Assembly (NCBI GenBank): GCA_963667725.2 | Contig: CAXXHO010000003.1 | Location: 1-64,000, forward strand | Length of the DNA stretch: 64,000 nucleotides | From: Treponemataceae bacterium | GTDB taxonomy: Bacteria > Spirochaetota > Spirochaetia > Treponematales > Rectinemataceae | Direction of reading: 5' to 3' | Shown here: positions 32,635-44,662 of the stretch, one piece after another | Layout of the letters: each line of letters begins with the position of its first letter | How positions within the stretch are numbered: the stretch's first letter is position 1 | Made by a program: the position numbers and the translations under genes | Notes under the pieces: model-generated | Told to the model about the DNA's origin: nothing | What the model saw: the letters and a program-made list of their open reading frames with translations, nothing else | The model's database searches: none

Positions 32635-32703
32635 GGGAACGTTCCCAATTAGCTATTGCGCGATTTTTAAAGTCGTGTTAGGGTGTTTTTAGGGAACGTT
32701 CCC
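32635..32703 (+). promoter_or_regulatory. Two LacI-type operators (GGGAACGTTCCC) flanking a promoter
   Basis: Identical perfect palindromes at 32635-32646 and 32692-32703; TTGCGC-17-TAGGGT (32656-32684) between them. Confidence 0.85.
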
Positions 32704-32706
32704 ATT

Positions 32707-33735
32707 ATGAATAAACCCAAGATAAGCATTCACGAGGTTGCCCGTCTCGCCGGCGTCTCGAAAAGCACAGTGTCGCGCGTCGTCTCCGACCGGGGCGGTT
32801 CGGTGAGCCCGAAGGCCCTCGAAGCCGTCAACAAGGCCATCGAACAGCTCGGCTACACCAAGAACCTGATGGCGGCCTGCCTGCGAACCCAGAAAACCTA
32901 CATGGTGCTCGTGATGGTTCCCGACATAGCCAACCATTTCTGGTCGGAAATCGCCCGAGCCATCCAGGACAGGCTGGAGCCCGAGGGCTATTCGGTCGTC
33001 ATTGGTTCCACCGACTGGAGCGAGACGCGGGAGGCGCGCTACTACGAGCTCGCGCGCTCATCGCGTTTCGACGGGCTCATCCTCAACAGCGTCACCGACA
33101 ATATCAGCCTCATCAAGGACATAGGCGTTCCGAGCGTCATGATCGGCGAACGCAGCGCCACCCAGGACATCGACACGGTGGGCACCGACACGATGTCAGC
33201 CGCCCGCCTGGCTCTCGATTATCTCTACGGCACCGGACACCGCCGCATAGCCCTGGCCACGAGCGACCACGGCGGCGAGCGCTATCTCTCGCTGCGAAGC
33301 AGGGCATACAAGGATTTTCTGCGCGATAAAGGGCTCCCCTACGATCCCGACCTCGTCTTTTCGGTAAATCTCGACGAGGAAGGCGGCAGGACCCTGGCTA
33401 GGCATTGCCTGGCCCTGCCCGATTGGCGCCGCCGCGTCGATTCGCTTTTCTGCGGCAACGACATCGTGGCCATAGCCGCGATGGGCGAATTCAGGAAATT
33501 CGGGATCATTCCCGGCATAGACATTTCGATCGTCGGCATGGACGACGTGCCGGCGGCCGCGCAGACCTATCCCCCGCTCACGACGGTGAGGAAGCCCAGG
33601 GGACGGATCGGGGCGGCGGCCGCCGAGCTTTTACTCGCGAAAATGAAAGACCCCGGCAGACCCGCCGAAAAGCACCTGTTCCCCGGCGAACTCATCGTCA
33701 GGGACAGCGTCGTACAAAGGAAGGAAGAAGCATGA
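32707..33735 (+). CDS. LacI family transcriptional regulator
   Basis: SIHEVARLAGVSKSTVSRV HTH; NDIVA; PPLTTV; LIVRDS. Confidence 0.95.
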   Translation: MNKPKISIHEVARLAGVSKSTVSRVVSDRGGSVSPKALEAVNKAIEQLGYTKNLMAACLRTQKTYMVLVMVPDIANHFWSEIARAIQDRLEPEGYSVVIGSTDWSETREARYYELARSSRFDGLILNSVTDNISLIKDIGVPSVMIGERSATQDIDTVGTDTMSAARLALDYLYGTGHRRIALATSDHGGERYLSLRSRAYKDFLRDKGLPYDPDLVFSVNLDEEGGRTLARHCLALPDWRRRVDSLFCGNDIVAIAAMGEFRKFGIIPGIDISIVGMDDVPAAAQTYPPLTTVRKPRGRIGAAAAELLLAKMKDPGRPAEKHLFPGELIVRDSVVQRKEEA

Positions 33736-34727
33736 AAACCAGAGCTGAAGTTGTCGCCGACCGCGCCGGCTATGAATCCAGGGCCGCGGGCGCCCTGATA
33801 GGGCTTGCCGTGGGCGACGCCGTGGGCGATCTCGGCAGGAGCCAGGAACACAGGAACCGTTACGGCCTTATCGTGCGCCTTCTCGACGACGGCAAGAGCA
33901 CTGACGACACGGAATTCGGCGTGCTGACCGCGCGCGCCCTCCTGGATTGCCGCGGCGCGCTGACGCCCGCGAAGACGGCGGAAGCCTGGCGGAAGTACAT
34001 TATCGGCCGCGGCGGCGCGAAGAAGCGCGCGGGCCGGCCCCTCTATGGCGCCATCGAGAACCTCGGCCGCGGCATGGAGCCTCCCTTCACCGGCAAATAC
34101 AACGTGATGAACATAGACGACGGCGCCGCGATGCGCGCCACGCCCCACGGAATTCTGAGAGCGGGCGATCCCGACGGGGCCGCCGAACTCGCGGCCGCCG
34201 ACGCCTGCGTGAGCCATGACGCCGACGGCATATGGGCGGCCCAGGCTCTCGCCGCGAGCGTCGCCGTGGCCATCGCCGGCGGGTTCGTGGACGAGATCGT
34301 CGCCGCCGGCCGGGCCAGGTTTCCCGCAGGCAGTTGGATCGGCCACGCCATGGATACCGCCATGGATATCTGCGACCGCTTCCCCGATATCGAGGAAGCC
34401 TACGAGGAACTCCACACGAAGCTTTGGACGCCCGAACACGCCACGTCGCCCGAGGCCATCCCCCAGGTATATGCCATCTTCAGACTCACCGCCGGCGATC
34501 CCCGCCGCGGCCTTCTCTGGAGCGCCAATTTCGGCAGGGACGCGGATACGATCAGCGGCCTCGTCTGCTCCCTCGCGGGCGCCATGCACGGCCTCGCCGC
34601 CTTCCCCGACGCCTGGACGGCGCGCCTTCGCAAACCCTCCGGCACCTGCCTCGATTTCGCCGCGGAGGAAGACATCGTCACGCTCGCGAAAGAACTTGTG
34701 GCGCTCTCCTGCGGGATGAAGGCCTGA
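33732..34727 (+). CDS. ADP-ribosylglycohydrolase family protein
   Basis: GLAVGDAVG, STDDTE, DGAAMR, NFGRDADTI. Confidence 0.93.
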   Translation: MKTRAEVVADRAGYESRAAGALIGLAVGDAVGDLGRSQEHRNRYGLIVRLLDDGKSTDDTEFGVLTARALLDCRGALTPAKTAEAWRKYIIGRGGAKKRAGRPLYGAIENLGRGMEPPFTGKYNVMNIDDGAAMRATPHGILRAGDPDGAAELAAADACVSHDADGIWAAQALAASVAVAIAGGFVDEIVAAGRARFPAGSWIGHAMDTAMDICDRFPDIEEAYEELHTKLWTPEHATSPEAIPQVYAIFRLTAGDPRRGLLWSANFGRDADTISGLVCSLAGAMHGLAAFPDAWTARLRKPSGTCLDFAAEEDIVTLAKELVALSCGMKA

Positions 34728-34729
34728 AA

Positions 34730-35665
34730 ATGAGCGGAATCAATGCCCCAGCGCGGACGCTGACGGCGCGCCGGCCAGGGACTGGCCTGCGGAAGCAGGA
34801 ATGGTCGCTTCTCCTCCTCCTCGCACCCGCCCTTGTCTATTTTCTCGTCTATCACATCGTCCCGCTCTTTGGGATGGTTATGGCTTTCCAGGATTTCCGA
34901 ATCATCGGGAAAAGCCCTTTCGTCGGGCTCAAGCATTTTAAGGCGCTCTTCAGCTCGCCTTCCTTCATGCAGGTCCTGGCCAACACCCTGATCATCAGCT
35001 TCATGAAGATCGTGCTTTTCTTCCCCCTGCCCATCGCCTTCGCCCTCATGCTGAACGAAGTGCGCGCCTCCTTCATGAGGAAATTCATCCAGTCGACCAC
35101 CTACCTGCCTCACTTCCTTTCCTGGGTGGTCATCGCCGGCGTGTGGATCGCCTTCCTCTCGCCCAGCACGGGAGGCATGAACCAGCTGCGCAGCATTTTC
35201 GGCCTCCCGGCCATCGATTACATGACGGATAAGGGTTCCATCCGCTGGGTGCTCTTTGCCTCCGAGACATGGCGCAGCCTCGGATGGGACTCGATCATCT
35301 ACATGGCCGCCCTGGCGAGCATCAGTCCCAGCCTCTACGAATCGGCCGACCTGGACGGTGCGGGGCCGCTGCAGAAAATGCGTTTCATCACCCTGCCCGA
35401 GCTCACCTCGACCATGGTGACGGTCTTCATCCTGAACATGGGATTCTTCCTCAACGCGGGTTTCGACCAGGTCTTCAACATGATGAACGACTCGGTGATC
35501 AGCGTGGTGGATATTCTCGACACCTACGTCTACAGGATAGGCCTCCTGAACATGCAGTACTCGATCTCCACGGCGGCCAGCCTCTTCAAAGGCGTCATCG
35601 GCCTCGTCCTCATCCTCGCGGCCCATAAGGGCTCCCTCAAGGTGACGGGGAAGGGGATGTGGTGA
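34730..35665 (+). CDS. Carbohydrate ABC transporter permease (LplB-like)
   Basis: YLPHFLSWVV; LYESADLDGA EAA-type loop. Confidence 0.92.
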   Translation: MSGINAPARTLTARRPGTGLRKQEWSLLLLLAPALVYFLVYHIVPLFGMVMAFQDFRIIGKSPFVGLKHFKALFSSPSFMQVLANTLIISFMKIVLFFPLPIAFALMLNEVRASFMRKFIQSTTYLPHFLSWVVIAGVWIAFLSPSTGGMNQLRSIFGLPAIDYMTDKGSIRWVLFASETWRSLGWDSIIYMAALASISPSLYESADLDGAGPLQKMRFITLPELTSTMVTVFILNMGFFLNAGFDQVFNMMNDSVISVVDILDTYVYRIGLLNMQYSISTAASLFKGVIGLVLILAAHKGSLKVTGKGMW

Positions 35666-36561
35666 TGCGCAAAGTAAGAACGACCACAGTCGAGATAATC
35701 TGGCGCAGCGCCATCGCGATCTTTCTTCTCGGTATCAGCGTGGTGGTTATCGTCCCCCTGCTCAACCTCCTCGCCCTCTCCCTCTCCGACCCGGCGAGGG
35801 TGTCGGAGGTGCGCGGCCTCACCATCGTGCCCAAGGGGCTTTCCCTCATCAATTACCGCGTTCTGGCGGCTAATCCGCTCTTCGTCAGAAGCATCATGAA
35901 CTCAGTCTACATCACCTTCGTGGGCACGGCCCTGAACCTCCTCGTCACCGCGATGGCCGCCTTCGCCATGACACGGCCCAGGCTGCCCTTCAAGCGCTTC
36001 TTTCAGGTTCTCATCGTTGTGGTGATGATCTTCGAACCCGGGCTCATCCCCGAATACCTCGTCGTCAAGAAGATAGGCCTCATGGGAAGCCTCTGGGCCG
36101 TCATCCTCTACAAGACCGTGAACGTTTATTACCTCATCATCATGATGCGCTACTTCGAGGAAATCCCCTCCTCCTTCATCGAGGCCGCCCAGGTGGACGG
36201 GGCCAGCTACATGAAAATCCTGGCGAAAATCGTTCTCCCCCTGTCCAAGCCAGCCCTCGCGACGCTCGGACTTTTCTACGGCGTGTTCCACTGGAACGAA
36301 TACTTCAGGGCGAGCATCTATCTCACCGACCCCAACAAGTATCCGCTCCAGCTGATCCTGAGACAGTTCGTCGTTCTCGACGACACCGCCTCGCTCATCG
36401 GATCGGGCGCGCTCTTCAGCTACGATGAAGCCGCCCGCCTCAGCTACGACGCGCTGCAGGCGAGCACCATCATCGTGGCCATGCTGCCGGTTCTCGTTAT
36501 CTACCCTCTGATCCTCAAGTATTACGCGAGAGGAGTGATGGAAGGTGGAGTCAAGGAATAG
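35665..36561 (+). CDS. Carbohydrate ABC transporter permease (LplC-like)
   Basis: IEAAQVDGA; VLPLSKPALAT; HWNEYF. Confidence 0.92.
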   Translation: MRKVRTTTVEIIWRSAIAIFLLGISVVVIVPLLNLLALSLSDPARVSEVRGLTIVPKGLSLINYRVLAANPLFVRSIMNSVYITFVGTALNLLVTAMAAFAMTRPRLPFKRFFQVLIVVVMIFEPGLIPEYLVVKKIGLMGSLWAVILYKTVNVYYLIIMMRYFEEIPSSFIEAAQVDGASYMKILAKIVLPLSKPALATLGLFYGVFHWNEYFRASIYLTDPNKYPLQLILRQFVVLDDTASLIGSGALFSYDEAARLSYDALQASTIIVAMLPVLVIYPLILKYYARGVMEGGVKE

Positions 36562-36582
36562 GACAAGGAATAGGAGGTTATC

Positions 36583-38010
36583 GTGAAAAAGCACAGTATC
36601 GTGTCTTTGCTGATGGCGGTTCTTCTCGTCTGCGGAGTCGCCTTCGTGGGCGCGGCCACACCCAAGGTGAGGCTCGTGCTCAAGGATCTGGATACCGATC
36701 CCAATTCGGCCCAGTTCATCCAGCTTATCGAAAAGGGCATGGCCGCGGTCGGGACGCCCGTCGATATCGAGATCGTCAAGGTGCCGGCGGGCAACTACGC
36801 CGAGAAAATCAGCCTGATGATCATGTCGGGCGACATCCCCGATCTCATCTACTTCCAGGGCGGCGACGACAAGATCGCCATGCAGGACCTGCTCGTGGAC
36901 CTTCGCCCCTACGTCAACACATCGAAGAGCCTGAAAACTGTCCTGGACCAGCACAGCAAGCTGCGCCTCGAGAGCTATCCCTACCTCGTGTGGGTCGCTC
37001 CTCCCCGCGTCCGCGCTCCCGTTATCAGGCAGGACTGGTACGATTCGCTGCCCTCCGCCAAAGCGGTGGCCGCCAAGCCGACCGTCGACAACTACTACGC
37101 CCTCTTCAAAGATCTCGTCCAGAAAAAAGGAGCGAAGTTCGGCATCTCCGTGACCGGCGCCACCAACGGCGTCGAGGAACTCGACTCGATATTCGACGCG
37201 GCTTTCGGCATCACCTCGACTTGGATGAAGGGCGCCGACGGCCAGTGGACCTACGCGCGCGTCACGCCGAACGAGAAGACCAAGCTCGAATTCTACGCTA
37301 AACTCTACAAGGAAGGCCTTCTCGATCCCGAATACCTGACTAAGAAATGGGATTCCAAGGAGCAGGTGTTCTATGAGGGCAAGGCTGGCATGGTGGCGGG
37401 CGTGGCGCCCGGCAGCCTCGATGTCTACGCGAACAAGATGCTGAAGACCCAGGGCACGAGCATCGTTCCTCTTCCTCCCCCCGCCGGGATCGCCCAGGGC
37501 CTCGGCCCCTTCGTGGACGTCACCAAGGAAGCGCGCGGTTTCGCGATTCCCACGACCTCCAAGGTCAAGGATGCCGCCTTCGCCGTGATCGACTTCATGT
37601 GGAGCCCGGCCGGTCTCAAGATTGCCAAGCTCGGCATGCCCGGCCTCCACGTCGTTGAGGAAGCCAACCGCTATGTCCTCACCGACAAGTATTCCGAATG
37701 GTACAACGGCTGGTTCGGCGATTCCTTCAACGGCTTCAACCCCGACAAGCCTCTCTCGAGGCCGATCATGACCGACGCCGCCGTGGCATCGGCCAAACTG
37801 GCGACGAAGTACATGATGGCGGACAAGACCTTCCTCATTCCCGAGCAGTACGTCACCAACTGGGACGCCATGACAAACCTGTACAAGGAATATATCGCCG
37901 ACATCGTCACCGGCAAGAAACCCCTCTCCGCCTTCGATGAATACGTGCAGAAGTGGTACAAGGCTGGCGGCACCGAGCTGTCCAAGTACGCGGCCACCAA
38001 GCTGAAATAA
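36583..38010 (+). CDS. Carbohydrate ABC transporter substrate-binding protein
   Basis: Signal peptide; [25 protein letters not shown]. Confidence 0.9.
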
Positions 38011-38025
38011 GCGACGGGTTCTCTG

Positions 38026-38049
38026 GAGGCGCCGCTGACGCGGCGCCTC
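38026..38049 (+). other. Intra-operon hairpin after the binding-protein gene
   Basis: GAGGCGCCGC-TGAC-GCGGCGCCTC; weak U-tail, so probably mRNA-stabilising. Confidence 0.55.
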
Positions 38050-38075
38050 ATTATCTTCACTTTTGGAGTAAACCA

Positions 38076-40253
38076 ATGTCTTCCATACCTAGCGATTATC
38101 TCGAACGTGTCTACGCGGGCTTTCTGGGCAAGAATGTGGGAATCAGGCTCGGCGCGCCCGTGGAGCCCGCCATCTGGACCTACGAACGTATCCGCGAGGT
38201 GTATGGAGACGTAAAATCGTATCTGAAGCCCTATAGGAATTTCGCCGCCGACGACGACGCCAACGGCCCCGTGTATTTCGTGCGTCCCCTGCTCGAGGCG
38301 GCGGAGAAGGCCGCGCCGAAGGCGATGCCGGGAGCGACTCCTGAGGCTGTTCCTGGGGTGGTGCCGGCAACGACGCCCGCCGATGTCGGCAGGGCCTGGC
38401 TGGACTACGCGCGGGAAGGCGTCGGAATGTTCTGGTGGGGCGGCTACGGCCGAAGCACCGAGCATACGGCCTACCTGAACCTCAAGAACGGGATCCAGGC
38501 GCCCGAATCCGGCTCCATCGAGCGGAACGGGCAGGTGCCGGCCGAGCAAATCGGCGGGCAGATTTTTATCGACACCTGGGGCCTTGTCTGGCCGGGAAAT
38601 CCCGAAAAGGCGGCGGATTACGCGGCCGCCGCCGCTTCCGTGTCCCACGACGGAGAGGGACTGCTCGGCGCGCGCTTCATCGCGGGCTGCATAGCCGCCG
38701 CCTTCGTCGAGAAGAATATCCGTTCGGTGGTCGAGATCGGCCTCGGGCTGCTTCCCGCCGATTCGAAATACGCCGAGGTGGTGAGAGCCGTCATGGATTT
38801 CCACGACGCCCATCCCGAGGACTGGCGCCCCTGCCAGGAATACCTCATCGCGTCCTGGGGCTACGACAAATGGCCAGGGCTATGCCACATCATCCCGAAC
38901 GCGGGTGTCTGCGCCCTCGCTCTCCTCTATGGAGCCGGCGATTTCGCCCGCACGGTGGAAATCGCCACGATGTGCGGATGGGATACCGACTGCAACGCCG
39001 GCAATGTGGGCACCATCGCGGGCGTGCTGTACGGGCTGGACTCGATTCCGGCGCATTACCGGGCGCCCATCAATGACGGCATCGTCCTGTCGGGTCTGCC
39101 GGGCGCGCTGAACATTCTCGACCTTCCGACTTTTTCCAGGCGACTTTGCGCCGTCGGGTACAAGCTGGCGGGAGAGCCTGTTCCCGCGCCGATCACGGCA
39201 GCCCTCGAGCGGGGCGACGGGGAGAAGGCGCTGGACTTCGATTTCCTTCTGCCGGGCTCGACGCACGGCATGAGGGTTTCCGATCCCGTGGGCTTCGCTG
39301 CCGTGCATAGGGAAGGCATGGGGCTGGAGGGCGGCGGGGCGCTGGAGTTCCGCTTCGAGCGCCTGACGAGGGAGATGAACGGGAAACTGTTCTTCAAACC
39401 ATTCTACCGACGGGCTGATTTCGACGATGAGCGATACAGCCCGGTATTTTCGCCGATCGCGAGAGCAGGACAGATCGTGAAGATCCGTTTCCGCCACGAA
39501 CGCTGGGAAGGGCAGAGCGTCGGCGTGGAAGGTTATGTGCGCGATACCTTCTCCAAGGCGGAAATCATCGCTTCCCCGATGATATTTCCCGAAGAGAAAA
39601 AGCCTTATTGGATCGAGTTCGCGATTCCGGAGACGGGCGGCGCCTCGGTGGACGAGATCGGCCTCAAGCTCACGAGTTTTTCCGGCAAGGGGAAACGCGA
39701 TTCGGGCAGGCTCCTCGTCGACAGGTTCTCGGTGAGCGGCAAGGCTCGTTATGCGATTGATATAGGAAAACAGGCCGTCGAGTTCGGATGCGTGACGCCT
39801 TTTTCCCACGAAGGCGGCTGCTGGTCCATCGACGACGGCAATCTCCATCTCATGACGCCGGTGCCCGCCGCTTCCTATACGGGCGGATACAAGGTTGGCG
39901 ATCAGAGAATCAGCGCTCAGGTTAGGCCTTTGGCCGGCGACAGTCACCTGCTCATCGCGAGAGCGGGCGGTGCCATGCGCGGCTATATGGGCGGGTTCGA
40001 CAGTAAGAACGGCATCTCCATTTTCAGGAAGGATTTCGGCGTAACGTTGCTCGCTCATGCCGATTTCGAATGGAGGCACGGAGTATCGTACGTTCTCTGT
40101 CTCGAGGTTATTGGAGATCGCATAACTTTGCTCGTGGACGGCCGCGCCGTCCTGGAAGTACGCGACGGTACCTTCTCGAGCGGAATGGTGGGCTGCGGCT
40201 CCCTCAGGGCGGCCAGGACTATGTACGGAGCCTTCGAAATTGAGGAGCTGTGA
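38076..40253 (+). CDS. Large ADP-ribosylglycohydrolase family protein with C-terminal beta-sandwich domains
   Basis: [35 protein letters not shown]; ~330-aa beta-rich C-terminus. Confidence 0.88.
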
Positions 40254-41479
40254 TGAGCAAGGATCTGTTCCGCGCCGGCTCGCGGGCGAAATCGGATTGT
40301 TCGGTCACGTATGAAAGGAACGGAGCGCCCCTTACGGCTACCGTCAGCTCGAGCGTGGGTTCCTTGTTCGGCAAAGCCATCGCCGCGGCGGCGCTGCGCG
40401 TCGCCGCCGAATTCGGTGTCATGACGGGCTCCTTTACCATCGACGACGACGGCGCCCTCGACGACACCGTGGCGGCGCGCGCCGAGGCCTCTTTAAGGCT
40501 GGCCGGCTTCTCCCGAATCCCGGAAGCGGTCCCCGCCCAAGCTCCGCTCGCCGACGCCCCGGCCGCGGCTCGGCCAGCCAACGCGCGCGCCGCTTCCCCT
40601 CGGGGCAGACCTCGCCGCGCTCGCCTGTACCTGCCCGGCGACCAGCCCCATCTGGCGGTCAACGCCGGCCTATTCGGCGCCGATTGCCTCGTCTTCGACC
40701 TCGAAGACGCTGTCGTCGCCGAGTGCAAGTTCGAGACCCGCATCCTCGTGCGCCGCGTCCTCGAAGAGAGCCTCATGCTCGGGGACTGCGAGATCGCCGT
40801 CCGCGTCAATCCGCTTTCGGGGCCGTGGGGAAAGGGCGACCTCGCCGAGATCGTAAAGGCCAGGCCACACGCTATCGTTTTCCCGAAATGCGAATCAGCC
40901 GCCGACGTGGAAGAAGCCGACAGGGAAATCTCAATTCTGGAAGAAGCCGCGGGCGTTCCCGCGGGCTCGATATATCTCATGCCCCTCATCGAAACCGCCG
41001 CGGGCGCGCTCAACGCGAAAGAGATAGCCAAGGCTTCGCCGCGCAACGTCGCCCTCCTTTTCGGGCGCGAGGATTTTTCGCGCGACATCGGAGCGGTCCC
41101 CGTCGCGGCGTTGCCCGGCGCCGAGAGCCTCCTGGCCAGGCAGATGATCGTGCTCGCGGCCAGAGCCGCCAGAATCGATCCGTTGGATTCAACCTACGCC
41201 GATGTCGGCGACGAGGAGGGCTTGAAAGCCTCCTGCGAGGAAGCGAGGGCCCTCGGTTTCGCCGGCAAGGGCGTCCTCCATCCCGCCCAGATACCCATCG
41301 TCATGAAAGCCTTCCACCCCACGGAGGAAGAAGCCACGCGCGCCGAAAAAATCGTCGCGGCCTTCGACGCGGCCGCGGCCGAAGGCCGGGGCGCCATATC
41401 GGTGGACGGGGCCATGGTCGACGCGCCGGTCGCGGAAAAAGCCCGCGGCATTCTTCGCGATTACAGGGGAGCGCTCTGA
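40250..41479 (+). CDS. citE: Citrate lyase gamma (ACP-like, CitD)-beta (CitE) fusion
   Basis: N-terminal AGSRAKSD...SSVGSLFG...DDDGALD...ARAE matches CitD; then [44 protein letters not shown] (CitE). Confidence 0.85.
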
Positions 41480-41480
41480 T

Positions 41481-43079
41481 ATGGAATGGAACACCACCTC
41501 GCTCGGACGTGTCGTCCCGGCCGAAATCGACGGTAAAAAGCTGACCCCCTTCGCCGGCGCCTTCGCCGATCCACGCGCCGCGGCCGTCAGTTCTGAGCGG
41601 TCCGACCAGCGCGCCGCGGCCGCAGCCGCCCCCTCCATGCGGCAAACCCTTCGCCCCATTCCCTCGCGCGGCCGGCCGGTTAAGCTCGTCTCCGGCTGGA
41701 ACGACCTTTTCGACCGCCTGGAGCTTCGCGACGGAGCCACCATTTCCTTTCATCACCATCTTCGCGACGGCGACCGAATCGTGCTGGAAGTGGTTTCCCG
41801 GCTCGCGGCCCGGGGGCTTCGCGGCCTCAGGATCGCGCCCACGGCCCTCTTTCCCGTCCACGAAGGCCTTCTGCCCTTCATCCGCTCGGGCGTTGTCGCC
41901 AGGGTCGAAGGATCGATGTATGGCGCGATAGGGGCCGCCTGCTCCAAGGGCGAAATCCCGGAACTCTGCGTCCTGCGCTCCCACGGAGGCCGGCAGAGGG
42001 CTGTCCAGGAAGGCGAACTCGTCATCGACGCGGCCTTCATCGCCGCGCCCTGCGCCGATCCCTTCGGCAACGCCAACGGTCTCTCCGGAAAATCCGCCTG
42101 CGGCCCCTTGGGCTATGCCTTGCCCGATTCGCAGAACGCCCGAAAGGTGGCCGTCATCACCGACGGCCTCGTGCCCTATCCCTGCCATCACTGGTCGATC
42201 AAGGGCGCCAACGTCGATTATGTGCTCGAAGTGGAGAGCATCGGCGACAGCGCGAAGATCGTCTCCGGCAGCACGAAGCTGACGAGAAGCCCGACCCAGC
42301 TGCTGATAGCTGACATGACCGCCCGTTTCATAGAAGCCGCAGGCATCATGAAGGAAGGCTTTTCCTTCCAGGCGGGAGCGGGGGGCATTTCCCTCGCGGC
42401 GACCGTCTTCCTCGCCGAACGGATGCGCAAGGCAGGAGTGAAAGCTTCCTTCGCCCACGGCGGCGCCACGAAAGTCCTCGTCGACCTTCTCGAGGAAGGC
42501 CTTCTCGGCTCCATCGTTGATCTCCAGAGTTTCGACCTGGACGCCGCGCTCTCATGCGCCCGGGATCCGCGCCACATCGAATCCGATCCCTTTTCCTCCT
42601 ACGGACCGCGGTCGGCGGGCTGCGTCGCGAACATGCTCGACGTGGCAATCCTAGGCGCCACCGAAGTGGACCTCGACTTCAACGTCAACGTGAACACCCA
42701 TTCGGACGGCCTGCTTCTCCACGGCATCGGCGGCCACACCGACGCAGCCTCGGGCGCTGGCTGCACGATCATCACCGCGCCTTCTTTCAGAAAGCGCATC
42801 CCCATCGTGCGGGAAAGGGTGACGACGCTGACCTGCCCGGGCGAAGTGGTCGACGTGATCGTCACCGAGCGCGGCATCGCCATCAATCCCGCCCGCCCTG
42901 ACCTGATCGAGCGCTCATGTCGTGCTGGATTGCCCCTGGTGGACCTGCCTCGGCTCATGGAGGATGTCCGCAAAATCACCGGCATTCCCGAAGCGCCTCG
43001 CTTCAAGGACAGGCCGGTCGCCCTCATCGAATGGCGCGACGGGACGGTCATCGATGTCGTGAGAGAGTTGGATCTCTAA
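41481..43079 (+). CDS. citF: Citrate lyase alpha subunit / citrate CoA-transferase
   Basis: ISFHHHLRDGD, RSHGGR, CGPLGYA, QAGAGG, GGHTDA, IEWRDGTVIDVV. Confidence 0.93.
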   Translation: MEWNTTSLGRVVPAEIDGKKLTPFAGAFADPRAAAVSSERSDQRAAAAAAPSMRQTLRPIPSRGRPVKLVSGWNDLFDRLELRDGATISFHHHLRDGDRIVLEVVSRLAARGLRGLRIAPTALFPVHEGLLPFIRSGVVARVEGSMYGAIGAACSKGEIPELCVLRSHGGRQRAVQEGELVIDAAFIAAPCADPFGNANGLSGKSACGPLGYALPDSQNARKVAVITDGLVPYPCHHWSIKGANVDYVLEVESIGDSAKIVSGSTKLTRSPTQLLIADMTARFIEAAGIMKEGFSFQAGAGGISLAATVFLAERMRKAGVKASFAHGGATKVLVDLLEEGLLGSIVDLQSFDLDAALSCARDPRHIESDPFSSYGPRSAGCVANMLDVAILGATEVDLDFNVNVNTHSDGLLLHGIGGHTDAASGAGCTIITAPSFRKRIPIVRERVTTLTCPGEVVDVIVTERGIAINPARPDLIERSCRAGLPLVDLPRLMEDVRKITGIPEAPRFKDRPVALIEWRDGTVIDVVRELDL

Positions 43080-43129
43080 ATAGTCCTATTTATACCGATA
43101 CCCCCTATACATAAAACCCGAAATTCTGT

Positions 43130-43148
43130 ATGTTAACAGTGTTAACAT
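43130..43148. promoter_or_regulatory. TetR-type operator palindrome
   Basis: ATGTTAACA-G-TGTTAACAT, 23 nt before the TetR ATG. Confidence 0.85.
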
Positions 43149-43171
43149 GCCTGACTGAAAAAGGGGATTTC

Positions 43172-43816
43172 ATGCTTGAGGCGGAAAAAGGCACGAGCCG
43201 GCGAATTCGCGAGGCCGCCAAGAAGATCATCTCCGAAGAAGGCATGGAAGCCCTCTCGATGAGGAAGCTCGGCAAAGCCGTGGGCTTGAGCCAGGCGGCT
43301 GTGTATCGCCACTACAGGGACAAGGAAGCGCTCATACTGGCAGTCGTGGGCGAAGGTTATTCAGGCATCGTCGCGACCCTGGAATCGATCGCGGCTTCCG
43401 CTTCCTCCACCGAGGACTTTTTCCGGAAGTCGCTGAGAGGCTACGTGGAGTGGGCGTTATCCGACCCTGCCATGTTCAAGGCTCTGGCCCTGCGCGACGC
43501 TGGGCCGGCGGCTCGCCAGGTCAATTCTCTTTCGCCGGGCGTCTCGGCAAAACGAGAGACCTTCCAGATCCTCGTGGCGAAACTTGTGGAAGGGATGGCC
43601 GATGGCTCAGTGGCGAAGGTCGATCCGGAACTTTTGGCGCAGGTTCTTTGGATGTGGGTATTCGGCATCGCCGCCCGCCTTGTCCTGGAGCCGGAAATTC
43701 CGCCCCAGCACAGGGAAAAACTGATCGTAAACGCGGGGATAATGATATCCCGCAGCCTCAGGCCCGAAAGGGCTGAGGAAGATAGCCGCGACGCGGCCAA
43801 GGAGAAAGGACAATGA
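43172..43816 (+). CDS. TetR/AcrR family regulator
   Basis: EGMEALSMRKLGKAVGLSQAAVYRHYRDKEAL. Confidence 0.93.
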   Translation: MLEAEKGTSRRIREAAKKIISEEGMEALSMRKLGKAVGLSQAAVYRHYRDKEALILAVVGEGYSGIVATLESIAASASSTEDFFRKSLRGYVEWALSDPAMFKALALRDAGPAARQVNSLSPGVSAKRETFQILVAKLVEGMADGSVAKVDPELLAQVLWMWVFGIAARLVLEPEIPPQHREKLIVNAGIMISRSLRPERAEEDSRDAAKEKGQ

Positions 43817-44295
43817 AACTATTGGTCCTGTATGACACGAAACATGGAACGACAGCCGAGGTGGCCAGGGCCATAGCCTCGGCGTCGGGCGGAACCGCCG
43901 TCCCGCTGGCGGACTGTCCGGCATCGCTCGCCGGCTACGACAAGGTCGTGCTGGGCGCCCCCGTCTATTTCGGCCAATGGTCGAAAGCGCTCGGCGCCCT
44001 CGCCCTCGAGCGCCAAAACGAGCTTTCCGGCCCGAAGCTCTATGCCTTCGCGCTGGGCATGATGCCGAACGACCATGCCGGGGTAGTGAAGGCGACTCTG
44101 CCGGCCACTCTCGCCGATAAAATCGGGGGCATCCAGTGTTTCGGCGGACGCATCGATCCGGCGAAGCTGGGTTTCGCCGAACGCTTTATAACGAAAATGG
44201 TGTCGAAGGCTTCGGCCAAGCAGGGGCAGGCAACGGTCGAACTCGATCTCGCCGCCGCGGCGGAATTCGGAAGGAGGCTTCGCGATGAAGCCTAA
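43813..44295 (+). CDS. Flavodoxin-domain protein (HemG-like)
   Basis: YDTKHGTTAEVA, GAPVYFG, FGGRID. Confidence 0.85.
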   Translation: MKLLVLYDTKHGTTAEVARAIASASGGTAVPLADCPASLAGYDKVVLGAPVYFGQWSKALGALALERQNELSGPKLYAFALGMMPNDHAGVVKATLPATLADKIGGIQCFGGRIDPAKLGFAERFITKMVSKASAKQGQATVELDLAAAAEFGRRLRDEA

Positions 44296-44662
44296 GGCGA
44301 GTCCCTTCCTCATCGCCCTCATGCTGGTGTCTCTTGGGTTGGCTTCTTCCTGCGCCATGGATCCCGTGCCCGTGGCGGTGATGCCTGATATCTCGGCCAA
44401 GACCGACGGTGTCTACACAGGCGGCTACGATGGCGGCCTCGTCAAGGCCACCGTCGCGGTCACGCTGAGAGCCGGGCGGATCGACGCCATAAAAATCGTG
44501 AGTCACGACTGCAGTCCCGTCGGGAAAAAGGGCGAAGCGGTGGTCGACCGCGTCGTCGAGAGGCAGACCCTCGCGGTGGATGTCGTGTCGGGAGCCACCG
44601 GTTCCAGCATGGTGCTTCTCAAAGCTATCGAAATCGCCATTTCAGGAGAACCCGGTACTTGA
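44285..44662 (+). CDS. FMN-binding domain lipoprotein
   Basis: Lipobox LASS-C; DGVYTG; DVVSGATGSS flavinylation motif. Confidence 0.88.
   Translation: MKPKASPFLIALMLVSLGLASSCAMDPVPVAVMPDISAKTDGVYTGGYDGGLVKATVAVTLRAGRIDAIKIVSHDCSPVGKKGEAVVDRVVERQTLAVDVVSGATGSSMVLLKAIEIAISGEPGT

Follow-up and report, generated by a model that had tools for sequence, protein, structure and literature searches.

A candidate LacI-repressed operon joining ADP-ribosylglycohydrolase-fold enzymes, a sugar importer and a citrate lyase-type module in a Treponemataceae bacterium

Enzymes of the ADP-ribosylglycohydrolase (ARH) fold erase protein, nucleic-acid and small-molecule ADP-ribosylation. What, then, might two of them be doing in one operon with a carbohydrate importer and a citrate lyase-type enzyme? 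The question is raised by a locus of a Treponemataceae bacterium (assembly of 4.2 Mb, completeness 97%) on contig CAXXHO010000003.1, of which we analyzed positions 1–64,000 (the window). On the + strand, positions 32707–43079 hold eight co-oriented genes: lacI, ARH1, two permease genes, a binding-protein gene, ARH2, a gene for a CitD-CitE fusion (citDE) and citF. An earlier note on this DNA took the ARHs to be glycosidases acting on an imported riboside with a citrate-like aglycone. Comparison with related loci favors this proposal, through the linkage of importer, ribokinase and acid-lyase genes, but the aglycone is more likely to be of the citramalate or homocitrate type than citrate itself. 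To judge from these comparisons, the locus is probably an operon, repressed by LacI, through which the cell takes up and breaks down a riboside of a hydroxy-polycarboxylic acid.

Layout of the operon and its putative operators

The families of the operon genes were assigned with Pfam, and all eight are as first described. The features of the operon are listed here with lengths in nucleotides (nt) or amino acids (aa).

32635..32646, no strand: operator-like palindrome O1, GGGAACGTTCCC, a perfect 12-nt palindrome
32692..32703, no strand: operator-like palindrome O2, GGGAACGTTCCC, ending 3 nt 5′ of the lacI ATG
32707..33735, + strand: lacI, LacI-family repressor, 342 aa (Pfam LacI PF00356, Peripla_BP_1 and Peripla_BP_3, PF13377)
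33732..34727, + strand: ARH1, ADP-ribosylglycohydrolase-fold enzyme, 331 aa (PF03747, 152 bits)
34730..35665, + strand: permease 1 of an ATP-binding cassette (ABC) importer (PF00528, BPD_transp_1)
35659..36561, + strand: permease 2 of the ABC importer (PF00528, BPD_transp_1)
36583..38010, + strand: solute-binding lipoprotein, 475 aa, with an N-terminal hydrophobic stretch and Cys
38076..40253, + strand: ARH2, 725 aa, with an ARH catalytic domain (aa 15–327) and two beta-sandwich domains (PF03747, 175 bits)
40250..41479, + strand: CitD-like domain fused to a CitE-like lyase (PF06857 at aa 8–83, PF03328 at aa 123–345)
41481..43079, + strand: CitF-type CoA-transferase, alpha subunit, 532 aa (PF04223, 492 bits)

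As the earlier note had described, most of these genes overlap or abut. From the sequence, lacI and ARH1 overlap by 4 nt, 2 nt separate ARH1 from permease 1, the permease genes overlap by 7 nt, and gaps of 21 and 65 nt follow permease 2 and the binding-protein gene, respectively. ARH2 overlaps citDE by 4 nt if the fusion starts at GTG 40250 (409 aa) and by 1 nt if it starts at ATG 40253, the start that yields the 408-aa protein found in the database, and a single nucleotide separates citDE from citF. The block is thus predicted to be translationally coupled. Because ARH2 and citDE overlap, no intergenic space is left for the separate citDE-citF promoter that the earlier note had named as a threat to its idea. 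The first coordinate that the note gave, 32635, belongs to palindrome O1, and the true lacI start is probably ATG 32707, not GTG 32683.

The repressor combines a helix-turn-helix with a periplasmic-binding-protein fold, and CG-centered palindromes, which we predict to be operators, lie 5′ of its gene, as is characteristic of the LacI/GalR family. Its best NCBIfam model is RbsR-like, with a score of 182 bits, below the cut-off of 382. Perfect copies of GGGAACGTTCCC occur only twice in the 4.2-Mb genome, both times 5′ of lacI, and within the window none of 100 shuffles reached the observed 14-mer count. A similar pair, 55–57 bp apart, lies 5′ of lacI in all six of the spirochaete loci that reach that region; in locus L059, the second copy of the palindrome carries one mismatch. 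One-mismatch copies elsewhere in the genome are as frequent as in a reversed-pattern control (9 versus 9), and a wider LacI regulon therefore cannot be claimed. We read these data as pointing to an operon autoregulated by a dedicated LacI repressor at the putative operators. The only operator-like sites sit 5′ of lacI, which argues against the concern, also raised in the earlier note, that citDE-citF might escape LacI control.

Acid-cleaving modules that share one slot beside ARH2

To ask what accompanies ARH2 in other bacteria, we surveyed one genome per species. At least 559 stretches encode ARH2 relatives, of which the best 80 loci were kept; these span Spirochaetota, Bacillota and one Chloroflexota genome, and the window is not among them. 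Rectinemataceae and other Spirochaetota contribute relatives at 65–75% identity, and Paenibacillus, Cohnella, many Clostridia, Lachnospiraceae and one Anaerolineaceae contribute relatives at 48–54%. Genes were counted by tblastn with the window proteins and with proteins that had been Pfam-typed in seven loci; of the 80 loci, Pfam annotation itself covers 7 completely and another 9 in part.

Permeases were found near ARH2 in 71 of the 80 loci, a binding protein in 70, and a second ARH in 73, either of the ARH1 type or of a 385-aa type that we call ARH3 (both types in 4 loci). A PfkB kinase is present in 41 loci, and five of the six tested passed the ribokinase equivalog cut-off (299.65), the exception being that of L066 (212 bits). 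One locus (L067) has rbsD and rbsA beside the ARHs. This linkage to ribokinase and to rbsD/rbsA makes D-ribose very probably the sugar that is set free. The usual content of a cluster is an importer, ARHs, a ribokinase, a lyase and a regulator; the window has the long ARH2, the permease–permease–binding protein set, a second ARH and a CitE-type module, with no ribokinase in the operon. In two loci, the ABC importer is replaced, by a NupC-type nucleoside transporter in L082 (Metabacillus) and by an MFS carrier in L063 (Clostridium), a hint that the substrate, at least in one of its forms, has the size of a nucleoside.

The neighborhood survey, which the earlier note had proposed as a check, also links this core, in a mutually exclusive manner, to one of two kinds of acid-cleaving module. 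AtuA and DUF4387 proteins occur together in 56 of the 80 loci and a CitE-type module in 15, whereas no locus has both. The remaining 9 have neither, and 5 of these are contigs under 8 kb. The AtuA-like protein matches chain A of PDB 9erq ('Citramalate lyase, subunit A (cmlA)') with an E-value of 6.5e-133, and the DUF4387 protein matches chain B ('subunit B (cmlB)') with an E-value of 5e-25. Thus, CmlAB, known from Raoultella planticola (9ERQ/9EVF), holds in most clusters the slot that CitDE-CitF holds in the window, and is presumably its functional equivalent, although the two are unrelated in sequence and fold family and CmlAB cleaves citramalate directly, without CoA. No AtuA was found in the genome that carries the window, at its completeness of 97%. 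According to a 2015 paper, a DUF1446 gene adjoins the methylaspartase genes of enterobacteria, in which it was unclear what becomes of (S)-citramalate, and CitDEF-type citramalate lyase genes, which carry a citrate lyase annotation, occupy that place in clostridia (PMC4682846).

The CitE modules themselves take four forms: the fused CitD-CitE with CitF (10 spirochaete loci, with the window as an eleventh instance); CitE, CitF, CitC and CitX/CitG (L026/L044 and L053); CitE with an ADP-forming acyl-CoA synthetase (L052); and CitE with a family III CoA-transferase (L081). In a FastTree phylogeny of ARH2, rooted at the midpoint only, these modules are scattered among CmlAB-bearing rows, at about five distinct positions. 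The ARH2 proteins of spirochaetes form a clade with 100% support that is nested in Bacillota rows, beside three CmlAB-bearing Bacillota metagenome-assembled genomes (96%), and L052 is sister to a CmlAB-bearing Paenibacillus-like row; the pairing of L081 with L082 is a long-branch join and unsure. The tree suggests that the ARH2 core moved between phyla and that the lyase was then replaced, although the midpoint root leaves the direction unshown. That several different cleavage modules share one slot is strong evidence that an acid of the 2-hydroxy-2-alkylsuccinate type is a product of the pathway.

The linkage also holds when the search starts from the lyase. A full-length CitD-CitE fusion was found in 17 genomes among 100 relatives, all 17 belonging to the same family. 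CitF lies directly 3′ of the fusion in 17 of 17, and ARH2 lies 5′ of it in all 16 that can be assessed (L145 begins at a contig end); the earlier note had named a lack of such linkage in other genomes as an outcome that would refute its idea, and no such case is seen here. At the 10 loci whose CitE paralogue is unfused, ARH2 was not found, and a search for CitDE over 400 evenly drawn Spirochaetota genomes returned only unfused CitE paralogues, at no more than 42% identity. The gene order is found again in every spirochaete locus whose flanks are long enough and in the 16 assessable relatives, far more often than chance would allow.

The same genome has a canonical citrate-fermentation locus on contig 5 (1213000–1226000), with genes for GntR-FCD, TctC, TctB, TctA, CitE and CitF on one strand and for aconitase, CitC, CitD, a CitX-CitG fusion and isocitrate dehydrogenase on the other. 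The window CitDE-CitF is 40–47% identical to its canonical counterparts and, given this separate set on contig 5, is a dedicated paralogue.

The lyase, the ARH enzymes and the importer

The window CitDE-CitF resembles the citrate lyase CitCDEFXG of E. coli and Klebsiella and the CitDEF citramalate lyase of Clostridium tetanomorphum in having CitF, a CitE-type HpcH/HpaI lyase and a CitD-like domain, and the chemistry expected to be shared consists of an acyl exchange and then a retro-Claisen cleavage that yields an acetyl thioester and a 2-oxo acid. CitF scores 524 bits against the equivalog model TIGR01584, above the cut-off of 501. The window system differs from CitCDEFXG in that CitD is fused to CitE, in that a Lys stands at the prosthetic serine position, and in that the genes are embedded in a riboside-import cluster and not beside a citrate carrier. 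The canonical CitDs of the same genome and of L026, L044 and L053 read AG(S/T)(L/V)ESSD, with the E-S-(S/G)-D context in which the first Ser of ESSD is, we presume, the attachment site of the prosthetic group, as in E. coli and Klebsiella CitD. At the same stretch the fusions read xxKSDC, with Lys at the serine position followed by Ser-Asp-Cys. The window fusion therefore lacks the E-S-(G/S)-D signature, while the adjoining Ser is kept in most fusions. KSDC is found in 93 of 120 database fusions, with RSDC, SSDC, KSDL, KADL and QSDC in fewer, and is identical in genomes with and without CitX/CitG. That the conserved Cys of KSDC might itself serve as the acyl carrier is only a thought.

CitC, CitX and CitG are not encoded within the window operon. 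Of the 17 relatives that carry the fusion, 11 have CitG, CitX, a strong CitC match and a free CitD, and the other 6 have none of the four (G414, G429, G448, G451, G452 and G456; completeness 87–99%), and all six of the latter retain ARH2-CitDE-CitF. Because these proteins are present together or missing together, the machinery for the holo-acyl carrier protein tracks the canonical citrate set and not the fusion. These patterns suggest that the fused system probably works without a prosthetic group made by CitC, CitX and CitG, although one absent contig per assembly could mimic them. Free acetyl-CoA may be the recycled carrier, and the variants with CaiB or a CoA ligase must likewise use a free CoA-thioester carrier.

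Both ARHs score above the PF03747 gathering cut-off of 26.2 bits, and neither has a signal peptide, by inspection; the compound on which they act would therefore be imported intact. In ARH1, the motifs TDDTE and GRDADT align with those of DraG (2woe), but its scores against the DraG equivalog TIGR02662 (50.6 bits, cut-off 337) and the Tri1 model (36 bits, cut-off 490) fall far short, and ARH2 has no match among NCBIfam models. Thus, neither protein is an orthologue of DraG or Tri1. In ARH2, D59-D60-D61 and D303-T304-D305 are invariant in 32 homologues; the C-terminal metal motif ends in Cys, where the D-x-D-T type has Thr. An AlphaFold model of ARH2 built from the 32 homologues (pLDDT 88.4, pTM 0.91) has the all-alpha ARH fold in residues 1–330, and Foldseek pairs it with ARH3, DraG and MJ1187 (TMt 0.65–0.77). 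Both window ARHs keep the Asp-rich metal-binding motifs of these enzymes. They differ from them in standing in a nutrient-import context and not one of protein de-ADP-ribosylation, and ARH2 further differs in having about 400 extra residues in two beta-sandwiches.

CBM66 modules bind terminal fructofuranose. The last domain of the ARH2 model superposes on CBM66 over 150 columns (TMt 0.79–0.83, root-mean-square deviation about 2 Å; for 4b1m, TMt 0.83 and 1.9 Å), with a weak sequence match (E-value 0.002–0.003), and ARH2 is predicted on this basis to carry a CBM66-like sugar-binding domain. The domain shares its fold with the CBM66 of the Bacillus subtilis levanase SacC (4AZZ/4B1M), except that in ARH2 it is attached to a catalytic domain of the ARH fold and the protein as a whole is cytoplasmic. 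Such a combination of an ARH domain with a carbohydrate-binding module fits an enzyme acting on an oligosaccharide-like riboside. Elsewhere in the genome, contig 3 has a further ARH locus (542333–544600), with a gene for a 337-aa ARH followed by one for an MFS transporter, and contig 4 has an ARH profile match in three pieces on different open frames (107388–108221), which may be a broken gene.

The importer appears to be of the CUT1 carbohydrate type, with two BPD_transp_1 permeases and a binding protein assigned to family 1 via its relatives: the window protein has no Pfam match of its own, and its relatives at other loci match SBP_bac_1. Its closest solved relatives are AlgQ1 and AlgQ2 (E-value 7.5e-16 for AlgQ1), which we take to bind acidic alginate oligosaccharides. 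No ATPase gene was found between 32683 and 43079 in the open reading frame list or by Pfam, and importers of this type often rely on an ATPase whose gene lies elsewhere. In three Lachnospiraceae loci (L048, L057 and L062), an additional stretch of about 2.5 kb separates the genes for permease 2 and the binding protein. In L048 it encodes a protein with an FGE-sulfatase-like domain and a 613-aa protein without a Pfam match, and these may act as accessory enzymes in the pathway.

Candidate substrate, rival explanations and flanking features

We infer the following pathway, in which the individual reactions, the substrate and the sugar that this organism obtains are all part of the inference. The binding protein and the pair of permeases would import the compound intact, with an ATPase supplied from elsewhere. 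ARH2, as a metal-dependent ARH-fold glycosidase with a furanoside-type CBM66-like module, and the shorter ARH1 would hydrolyze alpha-ribofuranosyl bonds to release D-ribose, which would enter pentose metabolism via ribokinase. The other product would be an acid of the 2-alkylmalate type ((S)-citramalate, homocitrate or citrate), as is indicated by the CmlAB/CitE slot and the counts of ARH2 linkage. CitF would then move a CoA-type thioester onto the acid, and the CitE part would split the acyl thioester into an acetyl thioester and a 2-oxo acid (pyruvate, 2-oxoglutarate or oxaloacetate).

The data ask for a compound with one or more alpha-ribosyl bonds, since there are two, sometimes three, ARH types, of a size suited to an oligosaccharide or nucleoside carrier, and with an acid that a citramalate lyase could cleave. 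By our reasoning from Cahn-Ingold-Prelog priorities, (S)-homocitrate corresponds sterically to (S)-citramalate, and its cleavage would give acetate and 2-oxoglutarate. Ribocitrin is described as 'a tririboside of (S)-homocitric acid' and was tentatively detected in freshwater Streptomyces isolates, according to two reports (PMC12381216, PMC13136089). Ribosides like ribocitrin fit well as candidate substrates. The cluster occurs in soil, gut, groundwater and digesters, a breadth that points either to ribosides of this kind being commoner than is known or to another compound as the true substrate. We put forward a more specific version only tentatively, as one that may well prove wrong: the operon would degrade ribocitrin-like oligo-alpha-ribofuranosides of an (S)-2-alkylmalate ((S)-homocitrate or (S)-citramalate), with ARH2 as a CBM66-guided exo-alpha-ribofuranosidase, ARH1 cutting the last ribosyl–acid bond, and CitD′E-CitF, where the prime marks the altered CitD part, as a prosthetic-group-independent citramalate/homocitrate lyase. 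If true, this would be the first catabolic role for the ARH fold, with its first small-molecule O-riboside substrates, and a new mechanistic variant of the citrate lyase family.

These results have implications beyond the window. ARH-fold proteins appear as glycosidases of a nutrient pathway as widespread as the ARH2 relatives counted above, and a riboside-plus-acid pathway of this kind was previously undescribed, to judge from our literature searches. Naming the substrate would identify a common environmental metabolite, give a first function to three ARH subfamilies and provide a natural context for CmlAB. The occurrence of CitD-CitE and CitF in genomes without CitC, CitX and CitG further points to a citrate lyase-type enzyme that may have shed its prosthetic group. 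New in this study are the operator pair, the counts for mutual exclusivity, the reverse linkage, the ARH2 tree, the CBM66-like module and the uncoupling of the fusion from CitC/CitX/CitG.

Several points weigh against a riboside of a hydroxy acid as the substrate. Our literature searches found no paper in which ARH-fold enzymes cleave ribosides of hydroxy acids. The CitE part of the fusion matches the superfamily PF03328 but scores 239 bits against TIGR01588, where the cut-off is 443, and the CitD part scores 31–39 bits against citD models with cut-offs of 63.5–65; because these scores fall under the equivalog cut-offs, the family models do not assign a substrate to either part. The ARH-linked CmlA homologue, about half identical to the solved enzyme as estimated from the alignment, could prefer another acid. 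The spirochaete loci lack a ribokinase gene, and the best ribokinase-like gene of this genome lies on another contig and scores 224 bits, below 299.65. A sigma-70 scan returned no + strand sites, even 5′ of lacI, and so is uninformative on internal promoters; with the scan blank on that strand, citDE could still have a promoter inside ARH2. Finally, two Paenibacillus loci with full flanks (L031 and L040) have the importer, an ARH of the ARH3 type, ARH2 and a ribokinase under an AraC-type regulator, and the 10 kb on each side contain no acid-lyase module. Because the core is present there without an acid module, the acid step would be either dispensable or encoded elsewhere in these two.

Loci L031 and L040 also lend some weight to an unlikely alternative, in which the ARHs and importer take a neutral ribose oligosaccharide or an ADP-ribose-derived nutrient and the lyase takes a separate, co-available free acid, so that the two substrates are handled under common regulation but are not covalently linked. 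GntR-FCD regulators usually sense free carboxylic acids, and one adjoins cmlAB in many clusters. The ribose utilization systems (Rus) of Bacteroidetes are likewise ribose-sensing loci with ribokinases, some with ADP-ribosylglycohydrolases and LacI regulators, and are proposed to liberate ribose from varied sources; those of Bacteroides hold ARH genes without acid lyases, and Rus loci differ from our operon in being SusC/D-based, with an acid-lyase module unmentioned in the sections of the preprint on which we draw (bioRxiv 10.1101/574913). Yet no acid transporter was found in the Pfam-annotated loci (7 complete and 9 in part, of the 80), whereas the canonical citrate genes of this very genome do adjoin TctABC, and the five independent replacements of CmlAB by CitE in one slot, together with the 1–4 nt overlap of ARH2 and citDE, also speak against a separate acid. 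A nucleoside-like N- or C-riboside, with the cleaved acid arising from the released base-like part, is less probable still. The NupC-type transporter of L082 would suit it, and ARH-fold enzymes also cleave the N-glycosidic bond of ADP-ribosyl-arginine, according to PDB entry titles, but no enzyme leading from a base to a 2-alkylmalate was found in the same 7 complete and 9 partly annotated loci of the 80, and the usual content of the clusters is limited to importer, ARHs, ribokinase, lyase and regulator.

The citrate lyase prosthetic group, 2′-(5″-phosphoribosyl)-3′-dephospho-CoA, has an alpha ribose–ribose bond, and the earlier note had offered this as an alternative link between the ARHs and the lyase. 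The ARHs would then act on that bond, or on ADP-ribosylated proteins, and so maintain or regulate the lyase, an arrangement consistent with L026, L044 and L053, where complete CitEF-CitC-CitXG sets stand beside ARHs. We consider it very improbable, since most clusters use the direct citramalate cleaver CmlAB (56 of the 80 loci), the conserved partners of ARH2 are the importer and ribokinase, and 6 of the 17 relatives with the fusion lack CitX, CitG, CitC and free CitD. There is hardly any room for the view that the adjacency of CitDE-CitF to the ARH and importer genes has no functional meaning; within the reach of comparative evidence, it is refuted by the linkage to ARH2 in 16 of 16 relatives, by the mutual exclusion of CmlAB and CitE modules, and by the recurrence of the arrangement. 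The reading that we prefer remains that of an imported riboside of a hydroxy acid.

The literature that we searched, where results were judged by titles and the starts of abstracts for the metabolomics hits, offers little direct precedent for that reading. No paper described a cluster of ARH2, an importer and an acid lyase, and there was no informative link between ARH and citrate lyase; nothing paired ARH with ribofuranosidase or citramalate, or AtuA with DUF4387 or with citramalate lyase. Searches that combined citramalate with ribofuranosyl terms gave metabolomics lists only.

No RNA record for the stretch was among the matches listed. One run labeled metatranscriptomic, a label that is itself a guess, has contigs that cover parts of lacI/ARH1, the binding-protein gene through the hairpin to ARH2, ARH2, citDE and citF. 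Among the matches listed from that run, none bridges the ARH2/citDE junction, and assembled contigs show neither transcripts nor their levels. That hairpin and the gene that follows the operon are located as follows.

38026–38049, + strand: 10-bp GC-rich hairpin without a good T tail, 3′ of the binding-protein gene
43130–43816: TetR gene (Pfam), followed by a flavodoxin-like gene and an FMN_bind gene, a unit separate from the operon

Stabilizer hairpins are common after the binding-protein genes of importers, and this one would be an RNA stabilizer or attenuator within the operon. Upstream, the operon is bordered by an ABC-2 exporter pair (Pfam), and downstream by an AT-rich gap of 50 nt and then the TetR–flavodoxin–FMN_bind unit (window 43080–44662). 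An inverted repeat, ATGTTAACA-G-TGTTAACAT, overlaps the start of the TetR gene and is likely to be TetR's own operator.

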